Shown in pieces: positions 1 through 6,280 of a stretch of DNA of 6,280 nt; within the stretch, counting starts at the first letter, position 1; every line of letters starts with the position of its first letter. The position numbers and the translations under genes are program-made. The notes below the pieces were generated by a model, which was not told the origin of the DNA, did no database searches, and saw only the letters and a program-made list of their open reading frames with translations. The stretch comes from a virus (lineage: Duplodnaviria; Heunggongvirae; Uroviricota; Caudoviricetes): IMG/VR virus record IMGVR_UViG_2690315994_000034, one strand, 5' to 3'.

Positions 1-852
1 TTAACCGGCTTCGTTTTGACAGGTTGCCGGTCTTTCTTTTTTCACTTTCGCCAGTTCTTCCGCAGAGTAATGCGACGCGACATCCAGCCGTCGAAGCCCC
101 ATTTTGATGTACTCGCTGTTGATCTCAATACCAATGAATTTTCGTCCGCTGGCGATGGCTACGGCACCGGTAGTAAAGCTACCAGCAAACGGGTCGAGAA
201 CGATATCGCCTGGGTTGGAAGAGGCGAGAATAATGCGTTTCAGTAAGGCTTCCGGTTTTTGCGTCGGGTGGTTTTCATATTCATCCATCAAATAACGCAC
301 GCGCGGAAAATCCCAGACGTTACCCGGTACTTTTTGATGATTGTAAGGCTGTGGAGGATTTTTGCGATAATCGATCAACGCGCGCTGCGATCCGGTTTTG
401 GCTTCTACCAGAATAGCATCACCGTTGAATGTGTAGTTCTTTGCGTCTTTCACCATCATCAGGATGGGTTCGTACATGGAGCCGTAGTGTTTTTTCGCCT
501 GCACTCCAGAACTGTCATATGACCAGACGATGCGACTTTTGATGGTAAAAAGCTTGCGGCACTGGAGATCGATAAAGGGCATGTTTTCCGTACTGTTCAT
601 GATGTACATGCTGCCCTGCTTTTTCAGAACGCGGTGGCACTCTGCAATCACTTCTAACAGCCAGTCGATAAACAGATCTTCTTTCCAGGCTTCGATCAGA
701 CCATCAAAATTTTTACCGATGTTATACGGTGGGTCGGCAAAGATCAGATCGACGCTTTCAGTAGGTAGCTTTTTAAGTTCGGCAAGGGCATCACCGTGAA
801 TAATGGTCTTAGCTTCATTACCAAACCGGGTCGGTTCACATCCTGTTCTCAT
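1..852 (-). CDS. yhdJ: DNA adenine methyltransferase YhdJ-like (complete, 283 aa)
   Basis: Reverse-strand ORF with stop TAA at 1-3. Likely true start is ATG at 850-852 (protein begins MRTGCEPTRFGNEAKTIIHGDALAELKK), preceded by AAGGGAG 5 nt upstream; the ORF-track start at 916-918 is a TTG giving a 22-aa extension. Contains the DPPY motif (IFADPPYNIG) and an AdoMet-binding-like LDPFAGSFTTG segment typical of N6-adenine/N4-cytosine methyltransferases. N-terminus matches my recollection of E. coli YhdJ. Confidence 0.9.
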   Translation of the reverse strand: MRTGCEPTRFGNEAKTIIHGDALAELKKLPTESVDLIFADPPYNIGKNFDGLIEAWKEDLFIDWLLEVIAECHRVLKKQGSMYIMNSTENMPFIDLQCRKLFTIKSRIVWSYDSSGVQAKKHYGSMYEPILMMVKDAKNYTFNGDAILVEAKTGSQRALIDYRKNPPQPYNHQKVPGNVWDFPRVRYLMDEYENHPTQKPEALLKRIILASSNPGDIVLDPFAGSFTTGAVAIASGRKFIGIEINSEYIKMGLRRLDVASHYSAEELAKVKKERPATCQNEAG

Positions 853-876
853 GGTCACTCCCTTTGTGACACCTAT

Positions 877-914
877 AAAAAAGGCGCTTCCCCATGCCGA
901 GTAGCGCCTTTTAA
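877..914 (-). terminator. Rho-independent terminator, probably the fis terminator
   Basis: Stem GGCGCT (883-888) / AGCGCC (903-908), extendable by A:T pairs to 10 bp, 14-nt loop. On the minus strand the stem is followed by TTTTTT (complement of 877-882); on the plus strand by TTTT. Lies between the fis 3' remnant and the yhdJ start. Confidence 0.55.
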
Positions 915-936
915 TCAAGCAATTAGCTAACCTGAA

Positions 937-2440: not shown

Positions 2441-3370
2441 ATGGCTAACGACATTAAAATACCTTTTCAATACTGCAATATTGAACGTGCGTCGAGATTG
2501 CTGGGTTGTGAGATTAGCGACCTGATTAATTTAGGTGTTACTAAAAAAATATCTTTATGTCTAAATTTGTTTGATGCTCGCGCTGTTTTATATATGAGAA
2601 CTGACAGCAAATCTGCATGCGACTGGTTCGATACCAGAAAGGCAAACTCCACCACATCCATGATGGGAAACAATATTACTGAATTTTCCAGGCTTCATCT
2701 CTACAGATGCGATTACAATGAGGAAACGGAAGAAACGATTCACGTGCCTTTATTTGGTCAAGATACAGAAAATGGGTGTTTCAGTTCTATTGGTAAGGCT
2801 TATGGGTTGTGGCGTCTTTGGAGCGGATTAGAAGAGCTACAAAATTTTGGAGAGTATGCCCTAAGTGGTTTTGAATTAACCCCGTGCCATCCAGAAACTG
2901 ATAATCCCGCCGTACAGCTTTTAATGGTTGGCGAAGATAGCGATTATGATGAAGAAGACGATCAAGTATTCAAAAATAAAATCTCTATAAACGATTTGTG
3001 GATTACTGCTCAGGATATAAGGCGGCTCCTTGACTGTGGTGGCGATTATTTCACGCTGACAGATGATATTGAATTTGTAGAACCTCATAAGATGAATGGC
3101 AATGAAATTGTTCATCATTCTGCTGAAAGACATGCAAGAAATCGAGAGCAAATTTTAATGGTAGCCATGCGCTTCAAAGAAGAGCAGCAAAATGCTTTTA
3201 ATGAGAGTTGCAGAAAAACAGATGGAACTATTAACTATTCTGCCTGGGCCCGTGAGTTGATCGCCAGACCTGACTGGTTCATCAATGGTGAATTGCCAAT
3301 AAAAACAGAAACGAAAATAGCAGCAATATTAAACAATGCGCATAAGAGGCCGAGCGAAAGAACACAGTAA
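2441..3370 (+). CDS. Hypothetical protein, 309 aa, function unknown
   Basis: ATG at 2441 with GAGGG 7 nt upstream; stop TAA 3368-3370. Noticeably AT-richer than flanking genes (first 60 nt are about 37% GC). Contains acidic patch GEDSDYDEEDDQ and two helix-turn-helix-like stretches (IERASRLLGCEISDLINLG and ISINDLWITAQDIRRLLDCGG). No catalytic motif recognised. Confidence 0.65.
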   Translation: MANDIKIPFQYCNIERASRLLGCEISDLINLGVTKKISLCLNLFDARAVLYMRTDSKSACDWFDTRKANSTTSMMGNNITEFSRLHLYRCDYNEETEETIHVPLFGQDTENGCFSSIGKAYGLWRLWSGLEELQNFGEYALSGFELTPCHPETDNPAVQLLMVGEDSDYDEEDDQVFKNKISINDLWITAQDIRRLLDCGGDYFTLTDDIEFVEPHKMNGNEIVHHSAERHARNREQILMVAMRFKEEQQNAFNESCRKTDGTINYSAWARELIARPDWFINGELPIKTETKIAAILNNAHKRPSERTQ

Positions 3371-3428: not shown

Positions 3429-3508
3429 TCTATGCTTACAACTGTATTTCTATCCAGTGTTAACGGTTGCAAACTAGCCTCCACAAACTTAGAAACAGTG
3501 GAGGCAAC

Positions 3509-3793
3509 ATGCAAAACCCCATTTTTACCCCGCCTAATCCTGAACAGCGCCGCACCCTTTTAGAAGAGTACGGCTTTAAGTTCGATCGTCGAATCCGTGA
3601 AGAAGAATGTAGCGAGATCACCAGCCTTTCCCGTTCCAGCCGTTGGAAAATGGAGCAGCAAGGACGATTTCCGCCACGCTGCCACTTCGGCCGCAATAGC
3701 TGTGCCTGGCTTCTTTCTGATGTGCTCTGGTGGGTTCGTAATCCGCCTGTAGTAGAGAACGTCAATAACCCATACAGCCGCAAATCTGCTTAA
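3509..3793 (+). CDS. alpA: AlpA-family phage transcriptional regulator / excisionase-like HTH protein (94 aa)
   Basis: Likely start ATG 3509 with GTGGAGG 4 nt upstream; ORF-track start 3467 is TTG. Segment ITSLSRSSRWKMEQQGRFPPRCHFGRNSCAWLLSDVLWWVRN fits the AlpA pattern (LSRSTIYR..G.FP.P...G.R...W...EV..W). Confidence 0.8.
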   Translation: MQNPIFTPPNPEQRRTLLEEYGFKFDRRIREEECSEITSLSRSSRWKMEQQGRFPPRCHFGRNSCAWLLSDVLWWVRNPPVVENVNNPYSRKSA

Positions 3794-3813: not shown

Positions 3814-4524
3814 ATGAAAAAGATTAATGCCCTCAACGGGCAGGGATTCGCTCACCCTGAAGCCAGCCAGAGCGATATTTTAATTAATCACAAATCGGAG
3901 CCGCGTATCGATTCCCGCGTTATTTCAGAGCGAGCCGGAATACAACATGAAAGCCTAAGCGCGACGATTAAATCGCACCAGAGCAGATTGCGCGAGCTGG
4001 GATCACTGCCTCGTCAGTCACTCAAGGAATTAACCGATTTGAAATCGGGAAAATCCGGCCGAAAGCGTGGGCGTCCTGAGATTAGTTATCTGCTGAATGA
4101 GCCGCAGCTCGACTATCTGCTGCGTATCACCCGAGGGCGTGATCCTGAGCGTATTAACCAGTTCAAACTGGATGTTACGAAGGCATTCACTAAGCGCCGC
4201 GCCGCAGAACCTATCCGCCGTGAGTACCTGCCTGGCTATCACGAAAGCCGCGACAGATTAAAAGCTCTGGGCGCACAACGGCACCATTACATCAATCTGG
4301 CCCGCGCTGAAAACCGCGTGGCTGGTTTGTCTGATGGTGAACGCGGTACCGCAGACGAACAGCAATTGGGGCTGTTGGTAGTGATGCAGAAAATCGAACA
4401 GGCGGCCTTTAATGAGGCGGTGCGTAATGACATGAGTCCAGGCGATGCGGTGCGTGAGGTTGCCCGCCGTATGGATGCGTTCGCCAGCCTGATCACTTCA
4501 TCGTCAGTGTTGGAGATTCGCTGA
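3814..4524 (+). CDS. Rha-family phage regulatory protein-like (236 aa)
   Basis: ATG 3814, stop TGA 4522-4524. Segments DSRVISERAGIQHESLSATIKS and ISYLLNEPQLDYLLRITRGRDPERINQFKLDVTKAF resemble the Rha N-terminal domain as I remember it (..TSSR.IAE.FGKRH..VLR.I.. and ..GY.LT..GF..L.M.FTG..A..FK..YI.AF..). Confidence 0.65.
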   Translation: MKKINALNGQGFAHPEASQSDILINHKSEPRIDSRVISERAGIQHESLSATIKSHQSRLRELGSLPRQSLKELTDLKSGKSGRKRGRPEISYLLNEPQLDYLLRITRGRDPERINQFKLDVTKAFTKRRAAEPIRREYLPGYHESRDRLKALGAQRHHYINLARAENRVAGLSDGERGTADEQQLGLLVVMQKIEQAAFNEAVRNDMSPGDAVREVARRMDAFASLITSSSVLEIR

Positions 4525-4546
4525 TGCGTCTTATGCCTAAAATTTT

Positions 4547-4568
4547 GCGCTCCCCCGTTTGGGGGCGC
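4547..4568 (+). terminator. GC-rich hairpin just downstream of the Rha-like gene; weak terminator candidate
   Basis: GCGCTCCCCC / GTTT loop / GGGGGCGC, 23 nt after the stop. No clear T tract on the plus strand (TCAAATCC follows). Confidence 0.25.
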
Positions 4569-4663
4569 TCAAATCCTTGTGAGTTAGCCGCGTGCTATTT
4601 GCATAACTCAATCAGGGTTGCGCAGAATTTGAGCCGACGAAATTCGCACGTACAAATTAACCG

Positions 4664-4680
4664 CGTACGTTTAACGTACG
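4664..4680. promoter_or_regulatory. 17-bp palindrome CGTACGTTTAACGTACG; candidate operator
   Basis: Perfect 8-bp arms around a central T; contains two CGTACG hexamers; a further ACGTAC at 4648-4653. Same core as the palindromes at 5247-5286. Confidence 0.4.
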
Positions 4681-4832
4681 GACATCTCAACCCATTGAAT
4701 CATTTTGATTATCGCGAAACGCGAGAATTGGCGAGCAACGAACACGAACAGTATTCGGGTTCTCCTGAACATCAACACTGCTTAGGTTCAGAGGTTCCGA
4801 CGAAAAACGTAGAGAGCTGCGAAGATAACCAA

Positions 4833-4847
4833 CCCTCTTTAAGAGGG
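4833..4847 (-). terminator. Candidate terminator of the leftward RHH/small-peptide operon
   Basis: Palindrome CCCTCTTTAAGAGGG. On the minus strand the hairpin is followed by TTGGTTATCTT, and it lies 33-47 nt downstream of the small-peptide stop. Confidence 0.3.
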
Positions 4848-4879
4848 CCAGTTAAAGGCATTACAGGGAGTAACCCTGA

Positions 4880-5032
4880 TCAGCCATTTTTACAGCCTTT
4901 CAGTACATCGCCAGGGTTAACGGAACAGTCAGGCTTCCAAAGCGAATCGAAAAAACCGAATTGGTACAAAATCCATAAAATAATTAGTGCAATGAGAATG
5001 CGACCTGGGAGGGTATGTAACAGCCAGTTCAT
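4880..5032 (-). CDS. Small single-pass membrane peptide, 50 aa (not in the ORF track)
   Basis: Hand-translated minus strand: ATG at 5030-5032 preceded by GAAGGAG (5041-5047) with 8-nt spacing; stop TGA at 4880-4882. Product MNWLLHTLPGRILIALIILWILYQFGFFDSLWKPDCSVNPGDVLKGCKNG has an 18-residue hydrophobic stretch and a short polar tail with two Cys. Starts 21 nt after the RHH gene stop. Confidence 0.5.
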   Translation of the reverse strand: MNWLLHTLPGRILIALIILWILYQFGFFDSLWKPDCSVNPGDVLKGCKNG

Positions 5033-5053
5033 TATTTTATCTCCTTCTGAAAT

Positions 5054-5245
5054 TCAACCTTTTGGCTCTATGCCGCGCCGCTTTAGTTCTGCCCTAGCTA
5101 ATTCTTTAAACCAGTTACCAAGGGTTAGACCGTCAGAAGTTGCCGCCTCATTTACTTGTTGGCGTAGCTCTTTACTGATTCTGATTTGGAAGGTTGGAGA
5201 CCATCCCTCACCGCGTGGCGATTTATCGCGCTTTAATGTTGACAT
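5054..5245 (-). CDS. Ribbon-helix-helix (Arc/MetJ/CopG-like) DNA-binding protein, 63 aa
   Basis: ATG at 5243-5245, only possible start (in-frame TAG upstream); AGGAG 12 nt upstream. PTFQIRISKELRQQVNEAATSDGLTLGNWFKELARAELKRRG fits strand / helix / G-x-T turn / helix of RHH repressors, compared by eye with P22 Mnt and Arc. Confidence 0.5.
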   Translation of the reverse strand: MSTLKRDKSPRGEGWSPTFQIRISKELRQQVNEAATSDGLTLGNWFKELARAELKRRGIEPKG

Positions 5246-5267
5246 GTACGTACGTAACTCCTATTAT
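5239..5267 (+). promoter_or_regulatory. Near-consensus sigma70 promoter, rightward
   Basis: TTGACA (5239-5244), 17-bp spacer, TATTAT (5262-5267); predicted start near 5274. The -35 box overlaps the RHH start codon on the opposite strand. Confidence 0.5.
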
Positions 5268-5286
5268 CATTGCTGTTACGTACGTA
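5247..5286. promoter_or_regulatory. Twin palindromic operator candidates TACGTACGTA x2
   Basis: Identical 10-bp perfect palindromes at 5247-5256 (inside the promoter spacer) and 5277-5286 (at the predicted transcription start), spaced exactly 30 bp. Confidence 0.5.
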
Positions 5287-5303
5287 CAATATCAGTAGGT
5301 ACA

Positions 5304-5346
5304 GTAAAAAGCAAAGCCCCGCAAGTGTCGTTACCACTCGCAGGGC
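5304..5346 (-). terminator. Strong hairpin, terminator-like on the minus strand
   Basis: GCCCCGCAAGTG (5316-5327), loop TCGTTAC, CACTCGCAGGGC (5335-5346): 12-bp stem with two mismatches. On the minus strand it is followed by TTTGCTTTTTAC; on the plus strand by TTCTAACC (poor). Lies in the leader between the promoter and gene 5385-5588. Confidence 0.4.
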
Positions 5347-5384
5347 TTCTAACCACCAACGATAGAAAGCGTATCGAGGTAGCT

Positions 5385-5588
5385 ATGAGAAATCATACCA
5401 CACACCCGCAAGGGCGGGACTCGCACAACCTGAATAAATACATCTGGCGTTTTATCGCCCTGAGCACGGCACAACCGCGCGTGATTACCATTGAGGCCAC
5501 CAGCGAACAGGAAGCACGCCAGCAATCTCCGGCTGGCTGCGTGATGGTATTCGCTGCCCGTATTCGTCAGGGGTCACATCATGCGTAA
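5385..5588 (+). CDS. Small protein, 67 aa, ends in ARIRQG motif; possibly Ash-like/Icd-like
   Basis: ATG 5385 with GAGG 5 nt upstream; stop TAA 5586-5588 overlaps the next ATG (ATGCGTAA). Shares YxWRF..EATSEQEARQQ..FAARIRQG with the C-terminus of the next ORF. The family name is a vague recollection, not a verified match. Confidence 0.55.
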   Translation: MRNHTTHPQGRDSHNLNKYIWRFIALSTAQPRVITIEATSEQEARQQSPAGCVMVFAARIRQGSHHA

Positions 5589-6048
5589 AAACCGCTTGCA
5601 AAAAATTATCACGGGGCTGTATGCTTCCCCCGTCGCCCACATGGCGACCGGGTTTGACAGCCTGAATACATCTGGCGGACAGCCGCCCACATCCGATAAG
5701 CGGTTTTTTTGTGTCCGTAAACCTACCCATACCCGCATTATGGCGGGGCGTAACGGGGGAGCCTTTGTGCTCGCTGGTTTCCAGATGACCAGTCTGTCAA
5801 CCCTGTTACGTCTCGCCACCATGTTTGACAGCGTAGTAGCGAGACTCCTTAAAATTCATCTGGGAGCCTTTCACATGGCTGTATCCGCACGCCCTTATTT
5901 TGTCTGGCGCTTTATGCAGTGCCAGGAAAAACAAACCTCACTCTTTACCGTCACGGCAGCAACAGAACGCGAAGCCCGCGCCCAGCTGCCGCACGCACAT
6001 CTGATTTTTGTCGCCCGTATTCGTCAGGGGGAAACCTATGCACAATAA
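5581..6048 (+). CDS. Protein of 155 aa whose C-terminal 50 aa are paralogous to the preceding gene
   Basis: ATG 5581 overlaps the upstream stop and sits 7 nt after GGGG, the same arrangement as the next junction at 6038. C-terminus YFVWRF..TAATEREARAQ..FVARIRQG. N-terminal 98 aa are compositionally odd (R/G/S/T-rich), so the real gene may start at ATG 5875 (57 aa). Confidence 0.45.
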   Translation: MRKNRLQKIITGLYASPVAHMATGFDSLNTSGGQPPTSDKRFFCVRKPTHTRIMAGRNGGAFVLAGFQMTSLSTLLRLATMFDSVVARLLKIHLGAFHMAVSARPYFVWRFMQCQEKQTSLFTVTAATEREARAQLPHAHLIFVARIRQGETYAQ

Positions 6049-6280
6049 AACCACGCCGGACGCAGCCGCCGCCGCGCTCACTACGCTGATGCATGCGCTT
6101 ATTGATATTGAATGCACAGCAGGGCTTGCACAAAAGGAAGAACGGGAAGAATACACATTGTTCGCCCTGGAATGCATCCGATACACCGCCACGCGGTCGC
6201 TGAATGACGCTAAAAATATTCTTGTTGCTGATTGTGAAAATGGGGAGGGTGCCCCTATTAAGTTGTCAAGCATGTTATGA
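6038..6280 (+). CDS. Hypothetical protein, 5' part only (runs off window end)
   Basis: ATG 6038 overlapping the upstream stop (ATGCACAATAA), AGGGGGAAA 4 nt upstream; ORF-track start 6008 is TTG. 81 codons with no stop before the window ends. Confidence 0.5.
   Translation: MHNKTTPDAAAAALTTLMHALIDIECTAGLAQKEEREEYTLFALECIRYTATRSLNDAKNILVADCENGEGAPIKLSSML

Follow-up and report, generated by a model that had tools for sequence, protein, structure and literature searches.

The IMG/VR virus record IMGVR_UViG_2690315994_000034 (Caudoviricetes) contains a stretch of 6,280 nucleotides, referred to below as the window, which is the left part of a phage satellite resembling phage-inducible chromosomal islands of the capsid-forming kind (cf-PICIs) and adjoins the host gene yhdJ. 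Its minus strand carries a gene for a 63-amino acid protein of the ribbon-helix-helix (RHH) type, whose start codon is embedded in a rightward promoter, P_right. It is quite likely that this protein is an Arc/Mnt-type repressor of the satellite and that it acts as a switch, closing P_right by occupying two short sites in the region that separates the repressor gene from the operon. An earlier note on this DNA had proposed such an occluded promoter with the RHH protein as its repressor, and the comparison with related loci supports that proposal, since the promoter is conserved, the sites are conserved, and residues 18 and 20 of the protein co-vary with the sites. The module is thus a probable immunity-type repressor switch, so far undescribed, although its design is classical. 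The elements on which this reading is based are as follows.

5054..5245, minus strand: gene of the putative RHH (Arc-like) repressor, 63 amino acids (open reading frame list, weak family matches, AlphaFold2 model and Foldseek)
5239..5244, plus strand: -35 hexamer TTGACA of P_right (consensus scan), embedded in RHH codons 1–3
5246..5253, unstranded: predicted proximal operator core GTACGTAC, with an extended arm at 5245–5258, in the P_right spacer, abutting the -35 box and the RHH ATG
5258..5262, minus strand: RHH Shine–Dalgarno (SD) sequence AGGAG, read from the sequence; the AGG in the inner flank of the proximal arm is kept in other operator classes
5262..5267, plus strand: -10 hexamer TATTAT of P_right (consensus scan), with a predicted start at about 5274 from the standard distance between -10 and +1
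5280..5287, unstranded: predicted distal operator core GTACGTAC, with an extended arm at 5275–5288, spanning about +7 to +14 relative to the P_right start and about -8 to -1 relative to that of the leftward promoter P_left

The sigma70-like promoter is present as it had been described, with TTGACA at 5239–5244, a 17-bp spacer and TATTAT at 5262–5267. It matches the sigma-70 consensus at 11 of 12 positions and is the sole site of this kind reported by a consensus scan of 4500–6280. The placement of the RHH start inside the -35 box also holds, as the ATG (5245–5243, minus strand) shares 2 nt with TTGACA, the remainder of which forms RHH codon 2 and the first base of codon 3 (ATG TCA A..). The left palindrome likewise lies between this ATG and the SD sequence at 5262–5258, as the earlier note had it. 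Its claim of twin palindromes was borne out: TACGTACGTA is found at 5247–5256 and 5277–5286, with exactly two exact copies in the window (about 0.006 expected by chance, by our own estimate), and these copies form the cores of a perfect 14-nt inverted repeat with arms at 5245–5258 and 5275–5288. An inverted repeat of at least 12 nt with a gap of 3–30 nt was present in 1 of 300 shuffles of the window. What had to be revised is the recognised unit, which comparison with other loci defines as the 8-mer GTACGTAC at 5246–5253 and 5280–5287, with 34 bp from start to start, rather than a 10-mer repeated at 30 bp. The proximal site spans roughly -28 to -21 of P_right and is thus contained within the spacer. 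No further copies of GTACGTAC were found elsewhere in whole 20-kb islands, which suggests that the regulator acts locally.

The arrangement was followed through 238 related loci, 158 of them unique, which were collected from genomes (71), metagenomes (80) and viral contigs (80); loci that share it come from Enterobacterales and Pasteurella. TTGACA lies over the RHH start codon (start followed by TCAA) in 139 of the 158 unique loci. The conserved unit around it is an 8-mer of the form GT....AC, one copy of which abuts the start codon while the second lies 33–35 bp upstream, a core-to-core spacing kept in 113 of 116 unique loci. Across 71 loci of the class TQR (named, like the other classes, after residues 18, 20 and 22 of the protein), both 8-mers carry about 2 bits per position and the spacer between them is variable apart from three positions, which correspond to T1, A2 and T6 of a -10 hexamer correctly spaced from TTGACA. 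By these counts the arrangement lies far beyond chance. Codon 3 varies synonymously (ACA/ACT/ACC/ACG), and the Ser-2 codon is TCA in 52 of 52 tabulated genome loci, a figure that is circular, as the search pattern required TCA, and was not used as an independent test.

The same data bear on the possibility that the palindromes are chance or restriction-related sequences (TACGTA for SnaBI, GTAC for RsaI) with no regulatory role. Short palindromes are targets of restriction and methylation, and a methyltransferase gene, yhdJ, lies at 1–918; however, yhdJ is a host gene outside the island, other operator classes use non-palindromic 8-mers, and well over a hundred loci of many genera have exactly two copies, placed at constant distances from the promoter elements. 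On the comparative data this explanation is effectively refuted.

The conservation of P_right is also relevant to a reading in which the RHH protein binds the sites but mainly controls its own leftward unit, P_right being of minor importance or constitutive with control by C4 RNA further downstream. RHH proteins commonly autoregulate, a C4 antisense RNA and its a1/b1 targets follow P_right in the window, and C4-type RNA provides post-initiation control in P1 and P4 immunity. Pure autoregulation, however, would have no need of an operator placed exactly in the P_right spacer, and it sits poorly with a perfect TTGACA kept inside a coding sequence at the frequency given above and with a spacer whose only conserved positions are the T, A and T of the -10 hexamer. 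This arrangement is considered very unlikely, and repression of P_right by the RHH protein remains the preferred reading.

Evidence for that protein as the factor that recognizes the sites comes from their variation. The operator 8-mer falls into six sequence classes, which match the outward-facing strand residues 18, 20 and 22, and a Pasteurella homologue in a 15-kb element has the same architecture with its own residues and sites.

Class TQR: GTACGTAC, exact at both sites in 80 of 98 unique loci
Class AQR: GTGTGTAC/GTACACAC
Class QRR: GTG[AG][CT]CAC, in the forms GTGACCAC, GTGGTCAC and GTGGCCAC, in either orientation and at either site
Class ISR: GTATGGAC/GTCCATAC
Class PHR: GTGTACAC
Class MNR: GTATAGAC/GTCTATAC
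QQR (the Pasteurella homologue): GTAATTAC/GTATATAC

When operator classes were defined from the DNA alone and every protein column was then examined, only columns 18 and 20 differed in consensus in nearly every class (six and five residues, respectively), and both were 100% conserved within a class, while Arg22 (Arc Arg13) does not vary at all, and neither do the GT/AC ends of the sites. Proteins with the motif SPAFQIRI are 72–78% identical to Pantoea-type TQR proteins as opposed to 52–65% to APAFQIRI proteins (residues 16–23 excluded), yet they use the APAFQIRI-type operator, and loci L033 (PHR) and L125 (AQR) encode identical residues 24–63 next to different operators. Because of these mismatches between backbone and specificity, the operator sequence can be said to track the recognition residues and not overall relatedness. 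This indirect comparative test suggests that alternate residues of the strand read operator bases.

The co-variation also argues against the sites being operators of another factor, such as AlpA, a Rha-like protein or a host or helper-phage protein, with the RHH protein acting as an antitoxin or an unrelated regulator. This alternative, which is improbable, could appeal to the NCBI name of the homologues (HicB family antitoxin), to a weak Pfam match to HicB, and to a small open reading frame (ORF) that follows the RHH gene on the same strand (4880–5032, with a SWIM protein in other islands). However, 63 amino acids are too few for the N-terminal, partial RNase H-like domain of HicB, and the Pfam score lies below its cut-off; the downstream ORFs are not HicA (one has no Pfam match, the other is SWIM) and differ between islands, and no comparable downstream ORF is present in several loci whose ORFs were inspected. 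Residues 18 and 20, which are the Arc/Mnt recognition positions, predict the operator class exactly, and the class follows residue 18 across different backbones, which an unlinked or neighbouring factor would not produce. An identity as a HicB/HicA toxin–antitoxin pair was therefore rejected, there being no HicA gene, no HicB N-terminal domain and no Pfam match above the cut-off.

Several loci show further features of the system. Erwinia psidii IBSBF 435 has two loci, one ISR (L005) and one TQR (L015), as would be expected of hetero-immune satellites. The whole QRR class (L108–L135, L191, L196 and L204) apparently starts with TTG (TTGTCAA), and TTGACA is kept on the opposite strand. A chromosomal paralogue in Pantoea and Erwinia (L058–L072, about 2900–3190; strand motif SAAFQLRI) lies directly after the gene of the small RNA OmrA/B and its terminator; at these loci both the GT....AC operators and the embedded TTGACA are absent.

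The protein itself has a predicted beta-strand at residues 18–23 (TFQIRI), followed by helices at 25–37 and 42–56, and its best match among PHROG families is PHROG 228, 'Arc-like repressor' (E=1.9e-4). A profile search of the PDB places P17-T18-F19-Q20-I21-R22 on Arc P8-Q9-F10-N11-L12-R13, and hhalign gives the same register to Arc and Mnt with a probability of 33–35%, so that Thr18, Gln20 and Arg22 align with Arc Gln9, Asn11 and Arg13 and with Mnt His6, Asn8 and Arg10. The three Arc residues are the ones that contact the bases, and the PDB matches include 1par ('DNA recognition by beta-sheets in the Arc repressor-operator crystal structure'). In a Foldseek search of the PDB with the AlphaFold2 model, only RHH proteins are found among roughly the 30 best matches (E-values of at least 0.1), which are headed by Arc 1myl (template modelling score on the target 0.85, root mean square deviation 1.5) and also include PutA, CopA, AmrZ, NikA, ParG and CopG. 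Together with these matches, the model points to a beta-alpha-alpha RHH fold. The palindromic or pseudo-palindromic 8-mers are consistent with a homodimer, and the protein has neither a C-terminal tetramerisation domain of the Mnt type nor a coiled coil. The family is small. Only 78 clusters (50% identity) have a match with E<=1e-3 in a set of 1.84 billion representatives, and of 5426 complete E. coli genomes only some 60 have a detectable member. Whether a homologue on a contig from the phage lysate of an EDL933 host points to an island in EDL933 was also considered, and the idea was dropped, its sequence being found in only one, unrelated, complete E. coli genome.

A second promoter, P_left, is predicted on the RHH strand, together with a hairpin upstream of it.

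5286..5294, minus strand: extended -10 element TGATATTGT of the predicted RHH promoter P_left, recognized by a conserved pattern outside the distal core; the start is placed at about 5279
5303..5349, minus strand: hairpin resembling an intrinsic terminator, with a 15-pair stem and the T tract GCTTTTTACT as its tail, immediately upstream of P_left

Almost every operator class has the extended -10 pattern TGnTAnnGT directly outside the distal core on the RHH strand, its TG and TA positions carrying close to the maximal information, and Pantoea-type loci have TATAAG in its place. The -35-like element of P_left, TTGCTT at 5314–5309 (minus strand), is weak and agrees with the consensus at only three of six positions, which is why a simple promoter scan missed this promoter. 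Its conserved location just outside the distal site implies that P_right and P_left face each other and overlap almost completely, with starts predicted near 5274 (plus strand) and 5279 (minus strand). As for the hairpin, a similar G+C-rich stem followed by a T run lies upstream of the operators in most related loci. On the plus strand, folding of 5303–5349 gives a stable stem–loop in the P_right leader with no U tract behind it.

The positions of these starts help to assess whether the inverted repeat acts as a nucleic acid structure, either as a hairpin in the RHH leader RNA (through sequestration of the SD sequence or RNase III) or as a DNA cruciform. The arms are perfectly complementary over 14 nt, the whole RNA hairpin would have -21.3 kcal/mol, the SD sequence would lie in its loop with the ATG directly after the stem, and the arms of the ISR and MNR classes are not self-palindromic but mutually complementary. 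However, both predicted starts lie between the arms, so that neither transcript would include both arms and one from the P_left start would retain only a stem of -4.4 kcal/mol, and the terminator-like hairpin stands just upstream of P_left. QRR sites, moreover, are often direct copies (GTGACCAC at both sites in five unique loci), in which the stem is broken and the pseudo-palindromes are kept. The arm sequence of a class stays the same from genus to genus, with no compensatory drift, and it tracks two residues of the RHH protein. A role of the repeat as a structure thus seems quite improbable, and recognition of the paired sites by the RHH protein is the reading developed below.

According to the proposed mechanism, RHH dimers would bind the two GTACGTAC sites with their paired beta-strands in the major groove, Thr18, Gln20 and Arg22 facing the DNA. 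The proximal site fills the spacer of the presumably strong P_right, the position that Arc takes at P_ant, while the distal site would cover the early transcribed region of P_right as well as the stretch of P_left between its -10 element and its start. P_left, the weaker, extended -10 promoter, would make the RHH mRNA. Bound repressor would shut P_right and thereby silence the early operon, which in the window comprises an Icd-like gene, a1/b1, C4 RNA and a second Icd-like region and in full-length relatives continues with genes for primase, capsid and packaging. By occupying the distal site, the repressor would limit RHH synthesis through negative autoregulation. Because the promoters are opposed and their predicted starts are separated by about 5 bp, simultaneous occupation of both by RNA polymerase should be impossible, and repression of P_right via the proximal site would relieve P_left of competition, which is what Mnt does at P_mnt. 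The outcome would be a switch with both positive and negative autoregulation, and repression would be lifted by a signal, presumably a product of the helper phage. The two starts, repression as the direction of regulation, the order in which the sites are filled and the signal that lifts repression are inferences. Two separate dimers are likelier than a tetramer of the Arc type, given the spacing of 33–35 bp (about 3.2–3.3 helical turns) and a protein that lacks an oligomerisation domain.

A number of observations weigh against this reading. The 34-bp spacing is unlike the compact adjacent subsites of Arc, CopG and MetJ and leaves cooperativity uncertain, and the 12 nt between the RHH SD sequence and the ATG are a long distance. 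Loci L037, L040 and L048 are exceptions that have one site only. Three hybrid loci (L049, L055 and L057, about 2940–3000) combine a TQR protein and a distal GTACGTAC with a proximal GTCCATAC or GTTCATAC as in the ISR class, for which recombination inside the 60-bp control region, cross-recognition that is tolerated, or decay are possible causes. The co-variation between a gene and adjacent DNA is partly confounded by co-inheritance. The family matches of the protein are weak: the best match in the PDB profile search, P22 Arc over residues 11–58, has E=0.11, Pfam HicB (PF05534) scores 18.2 bits against a cut-off of 21 and covers only the RHH-like residues 18–46, and NCBIfam YlcI_YnfO_N (NF041551) scores 20.7 bits against a cut-off of 30. 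The AlphaFold2 model has a mean predicted local distance difference test score of 73, with helices behind an extended N-terminal segment, and the beta-strand is not formed in the monomer; such a strand pairs across the dimer, so that its absence from a monomer model is expected, which is not proof. Finally, in Gram-negative PICIs a global repressor has not been identified and control has been ascribed to the activator AlpA (PMC6092414).

The closest parallel is the immI region of phage P22, in which small RHH repressors (Arc and Mnt) also read their operator through beta-strand residues at P_ant and P_mnt. Changing Mnt His6, which aligns with Thr18, reportedly alters operator specificity. As in P22, an operator would lie in the spacer of a strong promoter and a weaker, opposed and overlapping promoter would make a monocistronic RHH repressor mRNA, as for mnt; at the level of sequence, P_right (5239–5267) and P_left (5294–5286) have this layout. 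The differences are nevertheless considerable. There is one RHH protein here, whereas P22 has two, and in place of the single 17–21-bp operator that is bound by a tetramer in P22, a compact site not seen here, there are two 8-bp sites 33–35 bp apart. The -35 box contains the RHH start codon, a satellite and not a phage carries the module, and in sequence the proteins are only marginally similar (E about 0.1 in the PDB search). Icd-like genes and C4 RNA stand at the head of the operon, where P22 has arc-ant.

A different part of the module recalls the immI operon of P1 and P7 and the CI RNA of P4. The P_right transcript would carry a1/b1, a C4-family RNA and Icd-like genes, which matches the P1 order of promoter, a1b1, c4 and icd, and P4-like and PICI-like islands share this a1/b1-C4-Icd module. 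In P1, protein control of the immI operon is provided by the C1 repressor at Op51, and no protein repressor is known at P_LE of P4, whereas here an RHH protein with its own operators occupies that place.

In its position and presumed logic, the RHH gene also resembles the genes of Stl, the repressor of Staphylococcus aureus pathogenicity islands (SaPIs), and of Rpr in Gram-positive PICIs (layout as in PMC6092414): it lies at the junction between the integrase side and the replication and packaging genes, is transcribed away from the operon and has intergenic operators. Unlike the RHH protein, Stl and Rpr are larger helix-turn-helix proteins, unrelated in sequence, for which derepression by helper-phage proteins has been demonstrated.

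Among the commoner E. coli PICI-like islands, such as that of Nissle 1917, the same minus-strand slot, divergent from an Icd-like gene, is taken by small YlcI/YnfO proteins with an RHH-like N-terminus. Intergenic repeats surround TTGACA there too, namely four copies of TGTAAG in Nissle (L240, 3541–4043) and the inverted repeat GGTGAAATACAC in S22EC (L241, 3706–4079). However, the start codon of these genes is not embedded in the -35 box, the operator motifs differ, and the window protein lies below the NF041551 cut-off. A distant relationship between the two is plausible, and the shared slot suggests that the RHH and YlcI/YnfO genes are exchangeable immunity cassettes. No characterisation of the YlcI/YnfO family was found in the literature searched. 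The 'repressor' of EcCIMP1 is unrelated, being PerC/ANR-like.

The remainder of the window is in keeping with a satellite of this kind and contains the following features.

1–918, minus strand: yhdJ (adenine methyltransferase), a host gene outside the island
1037–2347: P4-type integrase
2356–2424: int-alpA RNA motif RF02996, between the integrase and the next ORF (61.2 bits against a gathering score of 35.8)
2441–3370: ORF of unknown function
Within 3467–3793: AlpA-family regulator
3814–4524: Rha-like protein
5386..5588, plus strand: Icd-like protein of 67 amino acids, the first gene after P_right (NCBIfam NF033153, 69.8 bits against a cut-off of 25)
5619–5668, plus strand: a1/b1 target element (Rfam RF03163, 46.8 bits against a gathering score of 46.7)
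5736–5823, plus strand: C4 antisense RNA (Rfam RF01695, 72.6 bits against a gathering score of 45)
C-terminal end of ORF 5581–6048, plus strand: second Icd-like coding region (NF033153, 52.3 bits against a cut-off of 25)

The island adjoins yhdJ on the gene's 5' side, and there is no tRNA gene in the window. Each part of the P1 immI-type RNA module, namely C4 RNA, a1/b1 and the Icd-like gene, lies above its curated threshold, whereas the window includes no ant gene. ORF 5581–6048 runs through both the a1/b1 and the C4 RNA elements, and its 5' part is therefore probably non-coding; RefSeq calls its equivalent in E. coli O121 'frameshifted'. A relative of this island in E. coli, which lies at yhdJ as well, is about 95% identical over the aligned parts (81% of the window) and continues with primase, major capsid, prohead protease, portal, connector, HNH and terminase genes. 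Islands with an identical RHH protein are also found at tRNA-Pro/yejM, where the genes downstream of the promoter are small ORFs, DUF4222, an AAA_25 helicase, a single-stranded DNA-binding protein (SSB) and capsid/protease genes. The presence of the same RHH protein at different integration sites indicates transfer of the regulatory module between islands. Genes are ordered int, alpA, RHH (minus strand), small ORFs, primase/helicase, SSB, capsid, portal and terminase, so that the RHH gene stands at the junction of int/alpA with the replication and packaging genes and is divergent from the operon, which is the position of a PICI master repressor.

Directly downstream of the RHH gene and on the same strand, a hydrophobic ORF of 50 amino acids (4880–5032, minus strand) has a good SD sequence (GGAGA) and remained unmatched in PHROG, Pfam and PADLOC scans, and E. 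coli islands with an identical RHH protein have a 117-amino acid SWIM zinc-finger protein in its place. This may be a variable cargo slot that is expressed from the repressor promoter. A reading of the neighbouring genes as a defence system was rejected, PADLOC having returned no matches. It was likewise considered whether the switch is always accompanied by the C4/Icd module, and this was rejected as well: an Rfam scan found no C4 RNA in 20 other diverse loci that keep the switch. The RHH switch and the RNA module are therefore separable, which further argues against C4 RNA as the main control of a constitutive P_right.

Neither this RHH protein nor its operator was found described in the literature searched, and the RHH gene is not mentioned in the description of cf-PICIs. 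A broader proposal, which should be regarded as possible but tentative, is that the RHH protein is the missing master repressor, or Stl/Rpr counterpart, of a subfamily of Gram-negative PICIs and cf-PICIs, that the six to seven classes set by two strand residues are hetero-immune groups, and that helper phages induce these satellites by inactivating the RHH protein, besides or upstream of AlpA. If this is true, the hetero-immune groups would let several satellites coexist in one cell.

The design principle is classical and not a new kind of mechanism, as P22 immI likewise has an RHH repressor that acts on opposed, overlapping promoters, while the protein family itself is uncharacterised. The module provides a concrete candidate repressor for one subfamily of Gram-negative satellites, together with its predicted operators, two predicted promoters and predicted specificity residues. 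The database annotation is corrected in that the homologues are not HicB antitoxins. The natural matched pairs, which differ at two residues on a conserved 63-amino acid scaffold, represent a data set on DNA recognition by beta-sheets and may serve as a source of small orthogonal repressor/operator pairs. The recognition code appears unusually clear, and the candidate switch bears on the question of how Gram-negative satellites stay silent.

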